Shown here: positions 35,428-64,000 of the stretch, one piece after another | Layout: the number at the start of each line of letters is the position of its first letter | How positions within the stretch are numbered: the first letter of the stretch is position 1 | Assembly (NCBI RefSeq): GCF_011045215.1 | Contig: NZ_CP049201.1 | DNA length: 64,000 nt | Origin: Escherichia coli | GTDB taxonomy: Bacteria > Pseudomonadota > Gammaproteobacteria > Enterobacterales > Enterobacteriaceae | Strand: one strand, 5' to 3' | Notes under the pieces: generated by a model | What the model was told of the DNA's origin: nothing | The model's database searches: none | What the model saw: the letters and a program-made list of their open reading frames with translations, nothing else | Program-made: the position numbers and the translations under genes

Positions 35428-35515
35428 GGTGAGGTGTCCGAGTGGCTGAAGGAGCACGCCTGGAAAGTGTGTATACGGCAACGTATCGGGGGTTCGAATC
35501 CCCCCCTCACCGCCA
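35428..35515 (+). tRNA. serX: tRNA-Ser (GGA anticodon), serX
   Basis: GGTGAGGTGTCCGAGTGGCTGAAGGAGCACGCCTGGAAAGTGTG...GGTTCGAATCCCCCCCTCACCGCCA. It has a long variable arm, a CT-GGA-AA anticodon loop and an encoded CCA. Confidence 0.95.
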
Positions 35516-54100: not shown

Positions 54101-54757
54101 ATGGCTTATGATTACAGCGCCAGCCTCAACCCGCAAAAAGCTCTGATCTGGCGTATCGTCCATCGGGACAATATCCCGTGGATTCTGGATAACGGGCTGC
54201 ACTGCGGCAACAGTCTGGTGCAGGCGGAAAACTGGATCAATATCGGCAACCCGGAGCTGATCGGCAAGCGTGCCGGGCATCCGGTACCTGTCGGAACGGG
54301 CGGGACACTGCATGACTATGTGCCGTTTTATTTTACCCCCTTCTCGCCAATGCTGATGAACATCCACAGCGGGCGCGGCGGCATTAAGCAACGCCCCAAT
54401 GAGGAGATCGTTATTCTGGTCAGCAACTTGCGGAACGTGGCAGCACACGACGTGCCCTTCGTGTTTACCGACAGCCATGCTTACTATAACTGGACCAACT
54501 ACTACACCAGTCTGAATAGTCTGGACCAGATCGACTGGCCCATTTTGCAGGCACGGGACTTTCGCCGCGATCCAGACGATCCGGCTAAATTTGAACGCTA
54601 TCAGGCAGAGGCGCTAATCTGGCAACACTGCCCGATCTCTCTGCTGGATGGGATAATTTGTTACAGCGAAGAGGTCAGGTTACAATTAGAGCAATGGCTG
54701 TTTCAGCGTAATCTAACAATGTCCGTTCACACACGGGCTGGATGGTACTTCTCATGA
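54101..54757 (+). CDS. darT: DarT-like (DUF4433) DNA ADP-ribosyltransferase toxin
   Basis: 218 aa. Motifs [29 protein letters not shown] and YQAEALIW, ending AGWYFS. These closely parallel DarT as I remember it. Confidence 0.85.
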
Positions 54758-55821
54758 TCACATATACACAAGGCAATTTACTGGACGCACCGGTGGAAGC
54801 TCTGGTGAATACGGTTAATACCGTCGGTGTCATGGGGAAAGGCATCGCGTTGATGTTTAAAGAGCGCTTCCCCGAAAATATGAAAGTCTATGCCCTCGCT
54901 TGCAAACAAAAGCAGGTGATCACCGGCAAAATGTTCATTACCGAAACCGGGGAACTGATGGGACCGCGCTGGATTGTTAATTTTCCGACCAAACAGCACT
55001 GGCGCGCTGATTCCCGCATGGAGTGGATTGAAGATGGCTTGCAGGACTTACGCCGCTTTTTGATTGAAGAGAACGTGCAGTCCATCGCCATTCCACCACT
55101 GGGCGCAGGCAACGGTGGTTTGAACTGGCCGGACGTTCGGGCGCAGATTGAATCTGCCCTTGGCGACCTTCAGGACGTTGATATCCTGATTTACCAACCG
55201 ACTGAAAAATACCAGAACGTTGCCAAAAGCACTGGCGTAAAAAAGCTCACTCCCGCCAGAGCCGCCATCGCTGAACTGGTGCGTCGCTACTGGGTATTGG
55301 GGATGGAGTGCAGCCTACTGGAAATCCAGAAACTGGCCTGGCTGTTACAACGCGCCATTGAGCAGCATCAACAGGACGATATCCTCAAACTGCGGTTTGA
55401 AGCTCACTATTATGGCCCCTATGCGCCCAATCTGAACCATCTGCTTAATGCGCTGGACGGCACCTATCTAAAAGCCGAGAAACGCATCCCGGACAGCCAA
55501 CCGCTGGATGTGATCTGGTTTAACGATCAAAAAAAAGAACACGTTAATGCGTATCTGAACAACGAAGCCAGAGAGTGGCTACCTGCGCTGGAGCAGGTCA
55601 GCCAGTTAATTGACGGCTTTGAATCGCCGTTTGGTCTGGAGTTGCTGGCAACCGTAGACTGGTTGCTGAGCCGTGGCGAATGTCAACCAACGCTGGATTC
55701 CGTTAAGGAAGGACTGCACCAGTGGCCTGCGGGCGAACGCTGGGCCAGCCGTAAGTTGAGGCTGTTTGATAATAATAATCTGCAATTTGCCATTAACCGC
55801 GTAATGGAGTTCCATTGCTGA
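54754..55821 (+). CDS. darG: DarG-like macrodomain antitoxin (ADP-ribosyl-DNA glycohydrolase)
   Basis: 355 aa from [40 protein letters not shown] (macrodomain) plus a C-terminal domain. Its ATG overlaps the darT stop as ATGA. Confidence 0.85.
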
Positions 55822-58800: not shown

Positions 58801-58935
58801 AAAAGGGCAGAGTGGATTGGCGATCGTTTTAAAGAACGGGAAATTGCCAACGCATTACGTGAAGAGACCGCCAGCTATAATATTGATATTGATGAGGTGA
58901 TAGCGCTTGCCCGTCAGCAGAAGGAATATCACTGA
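55840..58935 (+). CDS. hsdR: Type I R-M restriction/translocase subunit HsdR
   Basis: 1031 aa. PD-(D/E)xK nuclease RPDLVLYVNGIALGVIELK, helicase motif I HTQGSGKSLTM and motif II FVDECHRTQ. TTG start preceded by AAGGAG. Confidence 0.93.
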   Translation: MSTVGQRERATQQRLIQFFVEDLGYRHLSHRTGYTGNSNIDTNILSAWLKRRGVNDTLITRALRQLDSAAALGEGKKLYYANKEVYRLLRYGVKDKEGAGEQNQTVWLIDWANPQANDFAIADEVTVKGEYCKRPDLVLYVNGIALGVIELKRSSVHVSEGIRQNLDNQKKTFIRDFFTTMQLVMAGNDTQGLRYGTIETPEKYYLEWKEDNPGDYTHKLDFHLSRLCSKSRLLDIVHNYIVFDVGVKKLCRHNQFFGVEAAKQHIARREGGIIWHTQGSGKSLTMVWLAKWIRENVPNSRVLIVTDRTELDEQIESVFMGVNEDIYRTSSGNDLIATLNHPNPWLICSLVHKFGCRSEAEDNAATDAFITELQQSLTKTFRAKGDLFVFVDECHRTQSGKLHNAMTAILPDALFIGFTGTPLMKKDKKKSVEVFGPYIHTYKFDEAVADGVVLDLRYEARDIDQYLTSEKKVDDWFEAKTRGLSNLARTQLKQKWGSMQKLLSSKSRLEQIVNDILLDMDTRPRLMDGRGNAMLVCSSIYQACKVYEMFSQTELAGKVAIVTSYRPDAASIKGEETGEGLTEKLSKHATYRKMLADYFEQSEEKAAARITEFEREVKQRFIEEPGQMRLLIVVDKLLTGFDAPSATYLYIDKTMTDHTLFQAICRVNRLDGEDKEYGYIIDYKDLFRSLDKAITDYTTGAFDDYDRDDVAGLLKDRLEQAQLDLDSALEMVRSLCEPVKTPRSLQDYQHYFCGKSGENQTSLNEKEALRLTFYQCVARLLRAYASIANEMPEAGYTAEEVESIRAEVAEFEKLRYEIKLTSGDLLDMKRFEPAMRHLLDMYVRADGSEVLMDFEELSLIELIVEKGLAATVALPDDIRNNQDAMAETIENNVRKTIVDENPVNPKYYGRMSQLLDELITLRRQNALNYQQYLERIRDLCKQVIRPEQTAGACYPATMDTQAKRAFYDNFGHDEVLATRIDTTIRYTKRAEWIGDRFKEREIANALREETASYNIDIDEVIALARQQKEYH

Positions 58936-59651
58936 TGCCAATCATGCAAATAGGCTCGTTACACTTGCTGGTCAACCGTAAGGCGATTAAGAATCTGCAT
59001 ATCAGCGTGCTGCCGCCTGATGGCAAAGTCCGCGTTTCAGCGCCGGAACATATGACGGAGACGGCGATTCGTATGGCGGTTGCTTCACGCTTTCGCTGGA
59101 TCAGAAAACAGCAGCAGGATTTCGCCAGACAGCCTCGTCAATCAGAGAGGGAAATGGTCAGCGGAGAGTGCCACTATCTTTGGGGCCGAAGATATCGCCT
59201 ACTTGTGATTGAGCGTCACGGGCGTCACGAAGTAAAAGTTGCGGGAAATAATAAGCTCCAGCTTTATGTTCAACCGGGAACCCGTGATGAAAATAAGGCA
59301 TTGGCGTTAAGTGAATTTTATCGACATGAACTAAAACAGCAGGTGGCTAAGCTTCTACCTGAATGGCAAGACCGAATCGGTGTTCCCCTAACATTCTGGG
59401 GCATCAAAAAGATGAAAACCTTTTGGGGCACCTGTAACACTACAACAAAACGAATCTGGCTCAATCTGGAGCTAATTAAGAAGCCGCCGGAGTGTCTGGA
59501 GTATATTCTGGTGCATGAACTGGTTCATCTTCTGGAACGTCACCATAATGCTCGCTTCCGGTTGCATATGGATCGGTTTATTCCTGACTGGCGTGAGCGT
59601 CGGGATTTGTTAAATAATATGCCGTTAGCGTTTGAGGCATGGGAGTATTGA
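58935..59651 (+). CDS. M48/DUF45 (YgjP-like) zinc metallopeptidase
   Basis: 238 aa with HEXXH in ILVHELVHLLERHHN. Its ATG overlaps the hsdR TGA (TGATG). Confidence 0.85.
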   Translation: MPIMQIGSLHLLVNRKAIKNLHISVLPPDGKVRVSAPEHMTETAIRMAVASRFRWIRKQQQDFARQPRQSEREMVSGECHYLWGRRYRLLVIERHGRHEVKVAGNNKLQLYVQPGTRDENKALALSEFYRHELKQQVAKLLPEWQDRIGVPLTFWGIKKMKTFWGTCNTTTKRIWLNLELIKKPPECLEYILVHELVHLLERHHNARFRLHMDRFIPDWRERRDLLNNMPLAFEAWEY

Positions 59652-60184
59652 TTGAGCCTGTAACTGTTTTTTGTCCATAAATTAACCTTCATTTGATGCT
59701 GGATAGAACATATCAAAATCAGACAATTACACAAATCTATGTACAGGCTCAACTCCTGCCATGGAACGTAGTACTCACCAATAAGTAAGCATCAATACGG
59801 CGCTCCGTTAACGCTTACTAGCATGGTTATCTCCTTAAAAAATTGAGGCGACAACTATGCTGACACAGGGGGTTACTCACCGATCTCCTTCACGGTAATA
59901 CGCAGTTCTTCAGAACCCGCCTCCGATACCAGCCTGGCGGTCGCCCCGGCGCAAGCAAAATAAATCGACCATTGTCAGACTGCGATCGTTCGGATGCCCC
60001 GCCACCGACGCATCAGTATGAGTTAACCGAAACGATACAAAATTGCCTGAGAATCATTACGCTGGCTGATGGAAGGCACACCAAAAGCCTCTGCACAGAA
60101 CGATGTTCGGCAACAACAGAAACATGATTGCGTTCATGGCAATAGTCATTCGTACCGTTACAGGCGGTATTGATTTATTACAGA

Positions 60185-60210
60185 CAAGCGGTACATATAT
60201 GTACCGCTTG
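60185..60210. repeat. Perfect 26-bp palindrome
   Basis: CAAGCGGTACATA|TATGTACCGCTTG, 50 bp downstream of the minus-strand OMP gene stop. No clear T-run on either strand. Confidence 0.6.
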
Positions 60211-60258
60211 GTTAAGTAAAAAAACAGATATGAACGCTATTATGTTCATTCTACTTTA

Positions 60259-60816
60259 TTAAAAGCGATAACCCACGCCAATATTGAATCCATTAATGGA
60301 ATAATTATCGCCAAGTTTTGCTCTGGTTCCTTCATATCCGGCATTAATTGTAATATTACTTGTCGGATTGATCATTACCCCGGCAGCATAAGCAAAAGAT
60401 GTGGATTTTTTCGAAATATTTTCTCTGGCGAAATAACCATCAACGTTTGTCCATGCTGTTTTACCATCAGCTTTAACATGCGCCACGCCGCCAGCCGCAT
60501 ACAGTGACATATAATCGTTAATGCGCCATACGGGGCCGGTCAGTAAGGAATAATATTTTGCATCAACCTGGTTTTTAATTGAATCGCCATATGAATGATA
60601 TTCCTGATTACCATCCCCTTTCATCCAGGAGAAACTGCCCATAATACTGACCGGGGAGTCCCATTCATACCTGTACTGCAGGTTTACCCCTCTAATATTC
60701 TTGAAGTTCTGAATTTTACTCTGTGCATAACCGACAGAAAACGAATGGTTGTCAGCCAGCACGGAACCGCTTGCCACTGATAATATGATGGCTGAAAGAA
60801 CTGACAGTTTTTTCAT
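60259..60816 (-). CDS. Ail/Lom/OmpX/PagC-family 8-stranded outer membrane protein
   Basis: 185 aa, signal peptide MKKLSVLSAIILSVASGSVLA, SVGYAQSK start and ...GFNIGVGYRF C-terminal beta-signal. Confidence 0.85.
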   Translation of the reverse strand: MKKLSVLSAIILSVASGSVLADNHSFSVGYAQSKIQNFKNIRGVNLQYRYEWDSPVSIMGSFSWMKGDGNQEYHSYGDSIKNQVDAKYYSLLTGPVWRINDYMSLYAAGGVAHVKADGKTAWTNVDGYFARENISKKSTSFAYAAGVMINPTSNITINAGYEGTRAKLGDNYSINGFNIGVGYRF

Positions 60817-61081
60817 TTTATTATCTCCATTGTTAATGAGAGTTATTTGATGAAATAATGATGCTAATATTTCTATCTGATGTCAATCACTCTGAGGGTG
60901 GTTGATACGTCAGAGGAACAACAGCTACATTAATATGCTATTTCAACCGGTTATCAGCATTAATTACAGCATACTTGTTCTGAATATCTCCGCATTCACG
61001 ATCAGCTTTACGACAGACAGTCATTTCTCTGTCAAAAGCATGTACCTCGTCGTAGCTGAGGTAGTTATTCTCAACAACATT

Positions 61082-61315
61082 TCAGAACCCCTTAACTTTC
61101 ATGATATGCAACAAACCAATACCCAAGCCTAAGATCCCCCCCCCATACACACTCATTTTTAACAGTCTAGAAAACTGAAAAACTTCAAATGATATTGGGG
61201 CATTCAAATAAAAATACATAAATATCTTCAGAAGAAGATAAAAAATCGAACCGACTATAAACAAACCAAATATGCATACAGTCATTAATAAGACAACAAT
61301 AAGAAGGTTCTTCAT
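61082..61315 (-). CDS. Small polytopic membrane protein, candidate CdiI-type immunity protein
   Basis: 77 aa, almost entirely hydrophobic (2-3 TM helices). Its ATG overlaps the stop of the upstream toxin fragment as ATGA. Confidence 0.65.
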
Positions 61316-62343
61316 TTCCCAGCCTCCATTGCATCTTTCTTTTTCTGGATAATGGAGCTTCCAAACTCAGATGATAAACTACCACCCGCATTACCCACAG
61401 CACCAGGGATCTTACTCGGTACCATTTCTTTAGATAGACCTAACTGCCCTTTAACTTCAGTATATTTTAGTAGAGTCGGATCGAATTTAGGATTCCAGCC
61501 ACCGGTTATCCATTTACCGATTGTATTTGCAGCAGGCTTGACCACATAATTGCCAACCCCATATCCAAACCCGGCCCCCGCTCCATTTGTAATCGCCCCA
61601 GTAAGAGGATCATCTCCGTTTATGGCGTTGGTTAATGCTCCACCTGCCGCATTCCAGGCTATTGTCCCTTTCCAGCCCTGCCCCATGGTGATTACATTGA
61701 CCCATCCTGCAATGATTGCATTTTCAGGATCAACTGAACTATCTACCATGTAACCAATTCCTGCATTTGCACCTGTGCCAAGAGCCCACATGGCCTGAGC
61801 ACCGCCAGGTAAGAGAGCTACACTACCAGTGGCCAACGCTCCGGCATACGCTTTATTGACTGCTTCTCCTCGCTTACAGGCTTCACCGCCTGGGGCATCG
61901 TTACAGGAAAGTACATCTGCGCCATGCGTCTGAGCAGCTTTGCTCTGCTCGGACTCTGTGCCACCAACCAAGTTATTCTCAGCAATGTTCTTCCCAACAC
62001 CAGCCCCTGCAGCCGCGCCAGCCACATCGCCACTGGCAATGCCGCCAGCCATACCCGCTGACAGCGTTGCCAGCGTGCTTATCGTCTGCTTCTGCTCTTC
62101 ACTGAGGTCTGACTGTTTCACGCCCGGATACAGCATTCCGATCGCTCTGGCTGCCAGCTCTCCCGTTGCTGCGCCTGCTGCACCAGCAGCAACATTATTA
62201 CTCTGCATTGCCGCTACTGCACCGCCCAGAATGGCGTGAGCAATGGCCTTTACTGCCGGGTCTTTTTCTGTTGATTTCAGCAGGTATGCCAGTTCCGGAG
62301 CCGAAGCTCCCGCCAGTACTGCACCAACGTCACCACCTGCCAG
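61312..62343 (-). pseudogene. cdiA: Orphan cdiA-CT module: start-less 3' fragment of a CdiA/haemagglutinin-type exoprotein (pretoxin region plus Gly-rich toxin tip)
   Basis: The frame is open from the in-frame TAG at 62344-62346, with no plausible start. It reads ...[79 protein letters not shown]...GKNIAENNL. That is the CdiA pretoxin region ending in a VENN-type (AENN) motif, followed by a ~215-aa glycine-rich C-terminal domain. Confidence 0.75.
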
Positions 62344-63048
62344 CTATGGCTGGAGATGGTGGATGTTACCGATAATCAAGAAGCCTTAGATATAAGGCAA
62401 TGTTTTATCTTTCTTTCATACGAAAACCAGTGCTGCCATACTAGCCCTTTTCCTGTGACATCTAAGCGAGCTCATGTTTATCGGGAAGGGTGTTAGATCA
62501 TTGTTAATCATACACAGGTAATTATGCAGCGGTTATGCATAACTTCATTTCGAGCGTGTGATAACGCCAACACAATCACCAGAATTATAAAATAAAATCA
62601 CAAAACCTGAGAACATGTCACATTTTATCACATTAATAATTTTTCTTTATGATTTCATAACTATTTACAGCCTTTTATTAAGCCAAAAAAAGTTAAATTG
62701 CAATTATTGCATAATTATTCGCGCTACAGTTTTTTTACTTTTAAAATCATATAATATATAATCACCTTAAAACAGCAAACTCCACAAAATAATAACAAAT
62801 AGAAATATTTCCACCCAAATAATGATTATCTATTCATGAGCTGACATTATGAAATTAATCATTATTTGATGCAAATAACACAAATTAAAACAAACACCTT
62901 AATATCCATTCTTGTGTGAATCTCATCACAATAATGTTTATTTTACCGCCTAGTATGAACCACGAAATCAATTGAACTTAGCCGCCATGAAATTAAATAC
63001 ACAACATGGCGCATACCTTTTTATTCTGAAAAAATTAAAGGAATAATT

Positions 63049-64000
63049 ATGGAAAAGCATTACGTCGGTTCTGAAATTGGTCAATTGCGTAGTGTTATGC
63101 TGCACCGCCCAAATTTAAGTCTGAAACGTTTGACACCATCGAATTGTCAGGAACTGCTTTTCGATGATGTACTCTCGGTTGAACGGGCAGGTGAAGAGCA
63201 TGACATCTTCGCAAATACGCTGCGCGATCAGGGGGTGGAAGTCCTGCTGTTAACAGACCTCCTGACACAAACCCTTGATATTAAAGAAGCGAAAACCTGG
63301 CTACTGGAGACGCAAATTTCTGACTACCGCCTCGGACCTACCTTTGCGGGCGATGTGCGCAGCTGGCTGGCGGACATGCCGCACCGTGAACTGGCGCGAA
63401 GATTAAGCGGCGGATTAACTTACGGTGAAATTCCGGCTGCCATTAACAATATGGTGGTGGATACCCACACGTCTAATGACTTTATTATGAAGCCGCTACC
63501 GAATCATTTATTTACCCGCGATACCTCCTGCTGGATTTATAACGGTGTTTCTATTAACCCGATGGCCAAACCAGCCCGTCAACGTGAAACCAATAACCTC
63601 CGGGCAATATATCGCTGGCACCCGGCATTTGCCGACGGCGATTTTATTAAGTATTTCGGCGACGAAAATATTTATTACGACCACGCCACTTTGGAAGGTG
63701 GCGACGTATTAGTGATTGGTCGTGGGGCGGTATTGATCGGCATGTCTGAACGCACAACACCGCAGGGCGTGGAGTTCCTCGCCAACAGCCTGTTCAAACA
63801 TCGTCAGGCCGAGCGAGTGATCGCCGTTGAGCTGCCAAAACACCGCTCCTGTATGCACCTTGACACCGTCATGACCCACATCGACGTTGACACTTTCTCC
63901 GTTTACCCGGAAGTGGTGCGCAAAGACGCCCAGTGCTGGACGCTCACTTCGAACGGACGCGATGGCCTACAACGGACCCAGGAAACCGACCTGTTGCACG
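63049..64000 (+). CDS. arcA: Arginine deiminase, N-terminal ~317 aa (runs off window end)
   Basis: ATG 63049 after [47 protein letters not shown]...[10 protein letters not shown]...[10 protein letters not shown]...CMHLDTV are ADI family motifs. Absent from the ORF track because there is no stop. Confidence 0.9.

Follow-up and report, generated by a model that had tools for sequence, protein, structure and literature searches.

An orphan group 6 CDI ionophore cassette next to the arc operon within a tRNA-Ser(GGA) island of Escherichia coli

In a 64,000-nucleotide stretch of Escherichia coli DNA (contig NZ_CP049201.1, assembly GCF_011045215.1; hereafter the window), a minus-strand reading frame at positions 61,082 to 62,343 resembles the 3' end of cdiA, the effector gene of contact-dependent growth inhibition (CDI). 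It has no start codon and is followed by a gene for a small hydrophobic protein. This raises the question of what such a toxin tip is, where its parts came from, and what it can do when detached from the rest of cdiA. A first reading of the letters alone (the original prediction) had proposed an orphan toxin tip with a membrane immunity gene. We found that the element is an orphan cassette consisting of a group 6 CDI ionophore tip (cdiA-CT, where CT denotes the C-terminal toxin region) and its immunity gene cdiI; both are of published kinds and no new principle is involved. With a probability of roughly 85%, we read the cassette as the decayed orphan-array end of a cdi locus in a tRNA-Ser(GGA) island, in which the toxin is not delivered and cdiI is the most probable working part.

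Identity of the toxin tip and its immunity gene

As had been predicted, the frame opens without a start codon directly after an in-frame TAG (Table 1). It is open for 343 codons from 62343 to the TGA at 61314-61312, and its first in-frame ATG, GTG or TTG is the ATG at 62208, which has no recognisable Shine-Dalgarno sequence. The conserved CdiA pretoxin region was confirmed by a Pfam match to PT-VENN at amino acids (aa) 78-125 of the frame (E = 1.6e-12; 47.8 bits against a cut-off of 20.3). The pretoxin-derived part comprises about 120 aa and the tip that follows the AENN motif 219 aa, of which 17% are glycine and 15% alanine. A glycine zipper, GxxxGxxxG, was located at residues 134-144 of the tip, and G134, G140 and Y141 were invariant among 44 tip homologs. 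The ATG of the next gene overlaps the toxin stop as ATGA and is preceded by GGAGG 7 nt upstream. Its 77-aa product is strongly hydrophobic (grand average of hydropathy, GRAVY, 1.43), with hydrophobic segments at about 4-36 and 55-73 and a GxxxGxxxG of its own. Neither the 343 nor the 77 codons are broken by a stop or a frameshift. The sequence thus supports the proposed orphan cdiA-CT and the translational coupling of its membrane immunity gene.

Comparison with complete E. coli genomes identified the toxin. With about 90% DNA identity, the tip and the immunity gene are found at the 3' end of full-length cdiA in strains M6, M9, M11, M15, M19 and others. The cdiA of M11 encodes 3131 aa, adjoins cdiB and carries the same tip with an unannotated 77-aa open reading frame (ORF) behind it; M15 is identical to M11 in the cdiA tip/cdiI region. 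The group 6 CDI ionophores have M15 as their prototype (Halvorsen 2024, PLoS Genet, PMC11630599). In that study, CT-M15 depolarised target cells, cdiI-M15 protected them, and killing required DtpA or DtpB. The same study showed that CDI ionophores share only the glycine zipper and modelled them as an entry domain plus a five-helix ionophore bundle, and it described their immunity proteins as two-helix hairpins of 72-100 residues. The sequence relationship to group 6, the glycine zipper and the very hydrophobic immunity protein within this size range are all present in our tip and the 77-aa ORF. The ionophore half is identical to CT-M15 at 113 of 116 aa (97%), the 77-aa protein to CdiI-M15 at 75 of 77 (97%; differences R3N and E30K), and the entry half to CT-M15 at 72 of 107 (67%). 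The earlier guess of a membrane-depolarising toxin accordingly gained an experimentally tested counterpart in CT-M15/CdiI-M15. Furthermore, the ionophore half and cdiI share about 98.7% DNA identity with the cdiA 3' end of M11/M15, and this is not a chance ORF.

Profile searches of the tip against Pfam and NCBIfam gave no match to colicins, microcins or Ntox25 (PF15530); PT-VENN was the only Pfam match at E<=1, and NCBIfam returned none. No model of either database matched CdiI, and a scan of 59000-64000 with Rfam found nothing. The ORF that is annotated as "VENN motif pre-toxin domain-containing protein" is better taken for a group 6 ionophore tip, and the cdiI behind it is unannotated. In RefSeq, full-length cdiA genes with this ionophore tip (e.g. 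L024, 5221-14616) are named "contact-dependent inhibition effector tRNA nuclease" and the 77-aa cdiI is left unannotated; this naming is a systematic misannotation. As for novelty, the original prediction implied more than the literature allows, because orphan modules (Poole 2011) and glycine-zipper CDI ionophores with immunity proteins of 72-100 aa (Halvorsen 2024) have both been published.

The original prediction would have been undermined if the upstream frame were continuous with a full cdiA. This is not so, and the DNA upstream is non-cdiA: in an alignment to the full-length M11 gene, cdiA homology begins directly after the TAG, and the non-cdiA DNA upstream of this TAG is identical in two other arcA-linked orphans. 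The frame is therefore not continuous with a cdiA body, which excludes an artefact of assembly or annotation.

Homologs of the tip are common across the Enterobacterales, and most database matches are short. A protein search that returned only short homologs (<=378 aa) suggested a toxin confined to orphans; this was rejected, as the tip was found on full-length cdiA in M11/M15, NCTC5923 and an Erwiniaceae genome. Because the conserved body determines how full-length CdiA proteins are clustered, their tips stay hidden, and the short matches are a clustering artefact. When species-representative genomes were scanned, the tip was found on open frames of 3296 aa and at least 3508 aa as well as in many orphans. 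A hydrophobic ORF of 61-84 aa ending in ...VKGF stood behind the toxin in 14 of 20 loci, and its start overlapped the toxin stop in 11 of these 14.

Table 1 Features of the orphan cassette and its surroundings (positions in the window)
Feature	Position	Strand	Basis
In-frame TAG, 5' junction of the orphan fragment	62344..62346	-	Alignment to M11 cdiA
cdiA pretoxin region, no start codon, same block as arcA junction	62087..62343	-	About 96% DNA identity to M11; 99.6% to mip270_22 orphan; PT-VENN
AENN, variant of the VENN boundary	61972..61983	-	Direct repeat; GKNIAENN in EcPF14 CdiA
Entry (membrane-targeting) domain, O103:H2-orphan/EcPF14 subtype	61663..61971	-	107/107 aa to 2015C-3163 orphan
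Ionophore domain with glycine zipper, M15 subtype	61315..61662	-	113/116 aa to CT-M15/M11; stop TGA 61312-61314
cdiI, 77-aa hydrophobic immunity protein	61082..61315	-	75/77 aa to CdiI of M11/M15
G9 homopolymer in cdiI, encoding Gly58-60	61136..61144	-	Comparison with related loci
Second, truncated orphan stub, NVVENNYLSYDEVHAFDREMTVCRKADRECGDIQNKYAVINADNRLK-stop	60938..61081	-	VENN-coding repeat
Ail/Lom-family outer-membrane beta-barrel gene	60259..60816	-	Pfam Ail_Lom, E = 3.5e-23
Non-cdi spacer between orphan and arcA; hairpin 62383-62398, promoter-like site 62613-62584 (-)	62347..63048		Alignment, promoter scan
arcA 5' part (arginine deiminase), first arc operon gene, runs off the window end	63049..64000	+	ATG 63049

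Mosaic structure of the cassette and its downstream flank

The DNA identity to M11 changes in steps along the cassette. It is about 96% in the pretoxin (62343-62087), about 65% in the pre-VENN linker and entry domain (62086-61681), and about 98.7% in the ionophore domain and cdiI (61680-61082); below 61081, the downstream flank is unrelated to M11. The entry half was identical at 107 of 107 aa to the O103:H2-type group 6 orphan of strain 2015C-3163, to which the ionophore half (57/118, 48%) and CdiI (24/77, 31%) are much less similar. The two halves thus match different group 6 tips, which makes the tip a natural recombinant with its crossover in the conserved stretch that joins the domains. 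This position fits their experimentally established modularity.

About 21 genomes carry entry-domain DNA of 99.3% identity, and on full-length cdiA genes the identity is 96.6%. Indeed, AENN together with this entry domain also occurs on the full-length CdiA of EcPF14, H22 and SCU-101, and EcPF14 reads GKNIAENN. AENN is therefore a normal variant of VENN on presumably working effectors, which bears out the prediction that it is a genuine boundary motif. A DNA search found the exact entry/ionophore hybrid in none of the complete E. coli genomes searched; the exact 298-aa product counted from the ATG at 62208 is present on seven contigs, all in the same orphan context.

The orphan of 2015C-3163 adjoins IS66 and an o11 module. 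There, the IS66 tnpC frame runs in frame into the orphan pretoxin and ionophore tip, and the 676-aa "transposase" annotated at this place (L038, 4743-6773) is a fusion ORF. An identical entry domain preceding o11 in an O103:H2 strain raised the idea that the domain is of the o10-EC869 (SecY) type. This assignment was rejected, because the orphan in the o10 position of the EC869-like O157:H7 strain FRIK944 is a different protein.

On the other side, the truncated stub starts one codon after the cdiI stop (61081-60938) and contains two cysteines, like the start of another entry domain. An (A/V)ENN-coding direct repeat flanks the cassette, with copies at 61971-61985 and 61063-61077, 908 nt apart; the cdiI stop of M15 is likewise followed by the NVVENN of a next orphan. 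The repeats therefore give the cassette the VENN-to-VENN structure described by Poole 2011 (PMC3150448). The segment with the VENN stub and the Ail/Lom gene (61075-60100) matches the cdi-locus 3' flank in strain C5 at 99.7% DNA identity, and in C5, ETEC1716 and 08-00022 these elements come after cdiA plus orphans.

Judged from these alignments, the cassette is a patchwork of an arcA-linked pretoxin, an O103:H2-type orphan entry domain, an M15-type ionophore with its cdiI, and a right flank of VENN stub and Ail/Lom gene. It most likely formed in an orphan array, through homologous recombination or deletion between repeats of the pretoxin, the inter-domain segment and VENN. The original prediction had proposed recombination through the retained pretoxin homology, and the mosaic structure fits recombination through the pretoxin and VENN sequences.

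The cassette lies within a genomic island. The first 35 kb of the window are core chromosome with murJ, mdoGH and tRNA-Ser(GGA) (35428-35515, plus strand), and this tRNA gene, next to mdoGH/ymdC, marks the start of an island that reaches the window end. The island carries CP4-44-like genes, Ag43, YeeR, a type I restriction-modification system with an embedded DarTG, and an M48 peptidase, and its identity to other E. coli islands is 97% as far as about 59.8 kb. The O157:H7 orphan array of the EC869 type lies in an equivalent tRNA-Ser island. As side observations, the genes of DarT (218 aa) and DarG/Macro (359 aa) were located between hsdS and hsdR (54101-55821, plus strand) and that of an M48/YgjP-like peptidase at 58935-59651; a near-identical island is present at another tRNA-Ser gene, next to infA, in RIVM_C029670 and FRIK944.

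The arcA junction and the whereabouts of cdiBA

No cdiB and no cdiA body are present within the 64-kb window, which ends 1.66 kb upstream of the fragment, inside arcA. This part of the original prediction stood; its description of the cassette as far from any cdiB/cdiA is not supported as worded, since some relatives with the same junction carry cdi genes or their remnants just beyond the arc operon. Many E. coli match the segment 62043-64000, which consists of the 5' part of the pretoxin, a 700-bp spacer and arcA, at 99% identity. The closest match to the pretoxin was an orphan of mip270_22 (99.6% DNA identity), which is also continuous with arcA. The junction segment 62300-63100 was found at a coverage of at least 80% in 356 E. 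coli genomes and with any match in 361; in these 361 genomes it occupies 66 chromosomal and 299 plasmid places, mostly on large plasmids. The TAG and the non-cdiA DNA upstream of it are identical in the window, in 10035210-2 (o11 DNase tip) and in mip270_22 (non-specific endonuclease tip). A single ancestral junction is therefore linked to three or more different tips today.

About 40 nt upstream of the junction TAG, a hairpin with a perfect 6-bp stem, GCCTTATATCTAAGGC, is followed by a T-rich run (62383-62398) and has a terminator-like score on both strands.

The arc operon (arcA, arcC, argF, yfcC and argR) covers about 5.5 kb. Beyond it, mip270_22 has a full cdiA and cdiI, APEC 102026 an intact cdiB with a 75-aa scrap of the cdiA 5' end and a fragment of IS66, 10035210-2 a cdiB pseudogene, and LR-24 nothing recognisable; IS3 truncates the orphan fragment of LR-24. 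Plasmid AR_0014 carries only a truncated VENN scrap, adjoining a truncated repA. The sister contig L030, which has the same genotype and is 99.88% identical, runs through arcC, argF, yfcC and argR and then ends at a 51-bp repeat. These genes and remnants indicate that the arc operon lies within a cdi locus, between cdiBAI and the orphan array, and that cdiBA has decayed to differing degrees. Apparently, part of the cdi locus was mobilised along with the arc operon, with IS66 nearby.

With such relatives in mind, the cassette might not be stranded at all: an intact cdiB-cdiA-cdiI could follow about 5.5-7 kb past the window end, making the cassette the ordinary first orphan of an active locus that is split by the arc operon. 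The strain with the closest pretoxin, mip270_22, has exactly this order, its full cdiA and cdiI standing directly beyond argR, and the intact cdiB of APEC 102026 points the same way. However, at least 80% of the mip270 arrangement of arc operon, cdiI and cdiA was found in just 7 of 5426 genomes, and the other junction carriers have a cdiB pseudogene only, have nothing, or are plasmids. We consider an active neighbouring locus unlikely, and a cassette left behind at the orphan end of a decayed locus remains our preferred reading.

Function, expression and comparison with known systems

A start codon, a signal peptide and a two-partner secretion (TPS) or filamentous-haemagglutinin body are all missing from the toxin fragment, which is therefore presumably neither exported nor delivered. 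The gene cdiI has its own ribosome-binding site, which makes standing immunity its most probable role. In this strain the toxin is most likely silent, which leaves the immunity gene as the working part. If transcribed, cdiI would yield a protein that inserts as a two-helix hairpin and protects against neighbours that deploy M15-type ionophores. Orphan modules have been reported to be functional and transcribed (Poole 2011, PMC3150448). A secondary role would be that of a recombination stock for new CdiA tips, by way of the pretoxin and VENN repeats.

On a full-length CdiA, the tip would be expected to undergo cleavage near AENN in the target periplasm. The N-terminal entry domain would then dock on an inner-membrane transporter, putatively DtpA/DtpB by analogy with CT-M15 and CT-O91:H8; the latter, a divergent group 6 entry subtype, still uses DtpA/DtpB, with a stronger preference for DtpA (PMC11630599). 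The C-terminal glycine-zipper helical domain, given its 97% identity to CT-M15, would be predicted to enter the inner membrane and abolish its potential, and the two-helix CdiI would bind this domain in the membrane and neutralise the toxin.

Several points weigh against this account. A promoter scan gave no excess of sites over chance (13 against 9.0 +/- 3.2 expected), and upstream on the minus strand there is a single sigma-70-like site, a consensus match at 62613-62584. Read-through from any cdi operon is blocked by the divergent arc operon. With just 67% identity to CT-M15 in the entry half, the receptor is a putative assignment by relationship. Relative to M15, there are three substitutions in the ionophore half, one of them in the glycine zipper, in addition to the two in CdiI. 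An AlphaFold2 monomer model of the tip, based on a 44-sequence alignment, was almost entirely helical; its pLDDT of 43 and pTM of 0.28 are too poor to confirm a five-helix bundle. Finally, the cdiI of L030 carries a frameshift, which hints that immunity is not always maintained.

This frameshift lies in the G9 tract of cdiI. The tract is uninterrupted here, and M11 and M15 carry an interrupted form, GGGGGAGGG. A G8 allele, which yields a 61-aa product, was found in L030, in strain 08-00022 and at the NCTC5923 locus, where it sits behind a full-length cdiA. The G9/G8 variation may be slipped-strand switching of immunity or a homopolymer sequencing error. On this basis one may imagine that the orphan itself is a working part, a hybrid formed in situ and kept as an immunity-only locus whose cdiI is switched by G9 slippage, with junction scraps, carried on hundreds of IncF-type plasmids, that could seed recombination elsewhere; we regard this elaboration as doubtful.

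The same frameshifts in L030 and 08-00022 are among the evidence for a neutral remnant, in which neither the toxin nor the immunity gene is selected and the cassette decays while hitch-hiking with the arc operon and the island. The IS3 truncation in LR-24, the 299 plasmid places of the junction (with a truncated VENN scrap alone in the one plasmid example examined) and the possibility that the hybrid toxin half is a deletion by-product are in keeping with it. Against these stand the intact 343 and 77 codons with the ribosome-binding site and ATGA coupling preserved, the about 98.7% DNA identity to the functional M15 module, and the function and transcription of the orphan modules of Poole 2011. 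A purely neutral remnant thus appears improbable, to about the same degree as the active locus considered above.

PGAP and other gene callers start the ORF at the ATG at 62208, and CT-EC93 and certain trimmed ionophores show toxicity when expressed in the cytosol. It could thus be argued that the 298-aa ORF is made in the cytosol and forms, with cdiI, a toxin-antitoxin-like addiction module that stabilises the island. The ATG, though, is the one without a recognisable Shine-Dalgarno sequence, and 75 extra residues precede AENN here, whereas CT-M15 with VENN or any unprocessed N-terminal residue is non-toxic in the cytosol. Translation from this ATG would therefore probably be harmless, and an addiction module is very improbable. 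None of these three alternatives alters what the element is, and we retain the undelivered toxin with a working cdiI as the preferred interpretation.

Taken together, the module boundaries show that CDI toxin diversity is shuffled at three fixed seams: the pretoxin, the entry/ionophore boundary and the VENN-to-VENN unit. They also show that immunity to a characterised ionophore can be retained as a gene where no delivery system is visible, which agrees with the published view of orphan modules as an immunity repertoire and a toxin reservoir.

Among known systems, CT-M15/CdiI-M15 (PMC11630599) is the closest, sharing the glycine zipper, the ATGA-coupled 77-aa immunity gene and the NVVENN of a next orphan after cdiI. 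Unlike in M15, the tip stands apart from CdiA, its entry domain is of another group 6 subtype, the boundary reads AENN rather than VENN, and the G9 tract is uninterrupted. The orphans of Poole 2011 (PMC3150448; o1-EC93 and o1-o11 of EC869) likewise consist of a cdiA 3' fragment with pretoxin and VENN, without start signals, followed by an immunity gene; they share the VENN-to-VENN bounds, and the O157:H7 array lies in the same kind of tRNA-Ser island. In contrast to them, the arc operon here separates the cassette from a past or present cdiBAI site, and one complete orphan and a stub are left. The orphan of 2015C-3163 and the CdiA of EcPF14, H22 and SCU-101 have AENN and an identical or near-identical entry domain, whereas their ionophore halves (48%) and CdiI (31%) represent other specificity types. 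A depolarising CDI toxin with a two-helix membrane immunity protein is also found in o10 of EC869 (group 2, SecY-dependent) and CT-EC93 (group 1, AcrB-dependent); the o10-type sequence of O157:H7 FRIK944, however, has an unrelated entry domain and a 91-aa CdiI. Pore-forming colicins and microcins show no sequence relationship to the tip in Pfam or NCBIfam, but they resemble this system in that depolarisation of the inner membrane is blocked by a small integral-membrane immunity protein.

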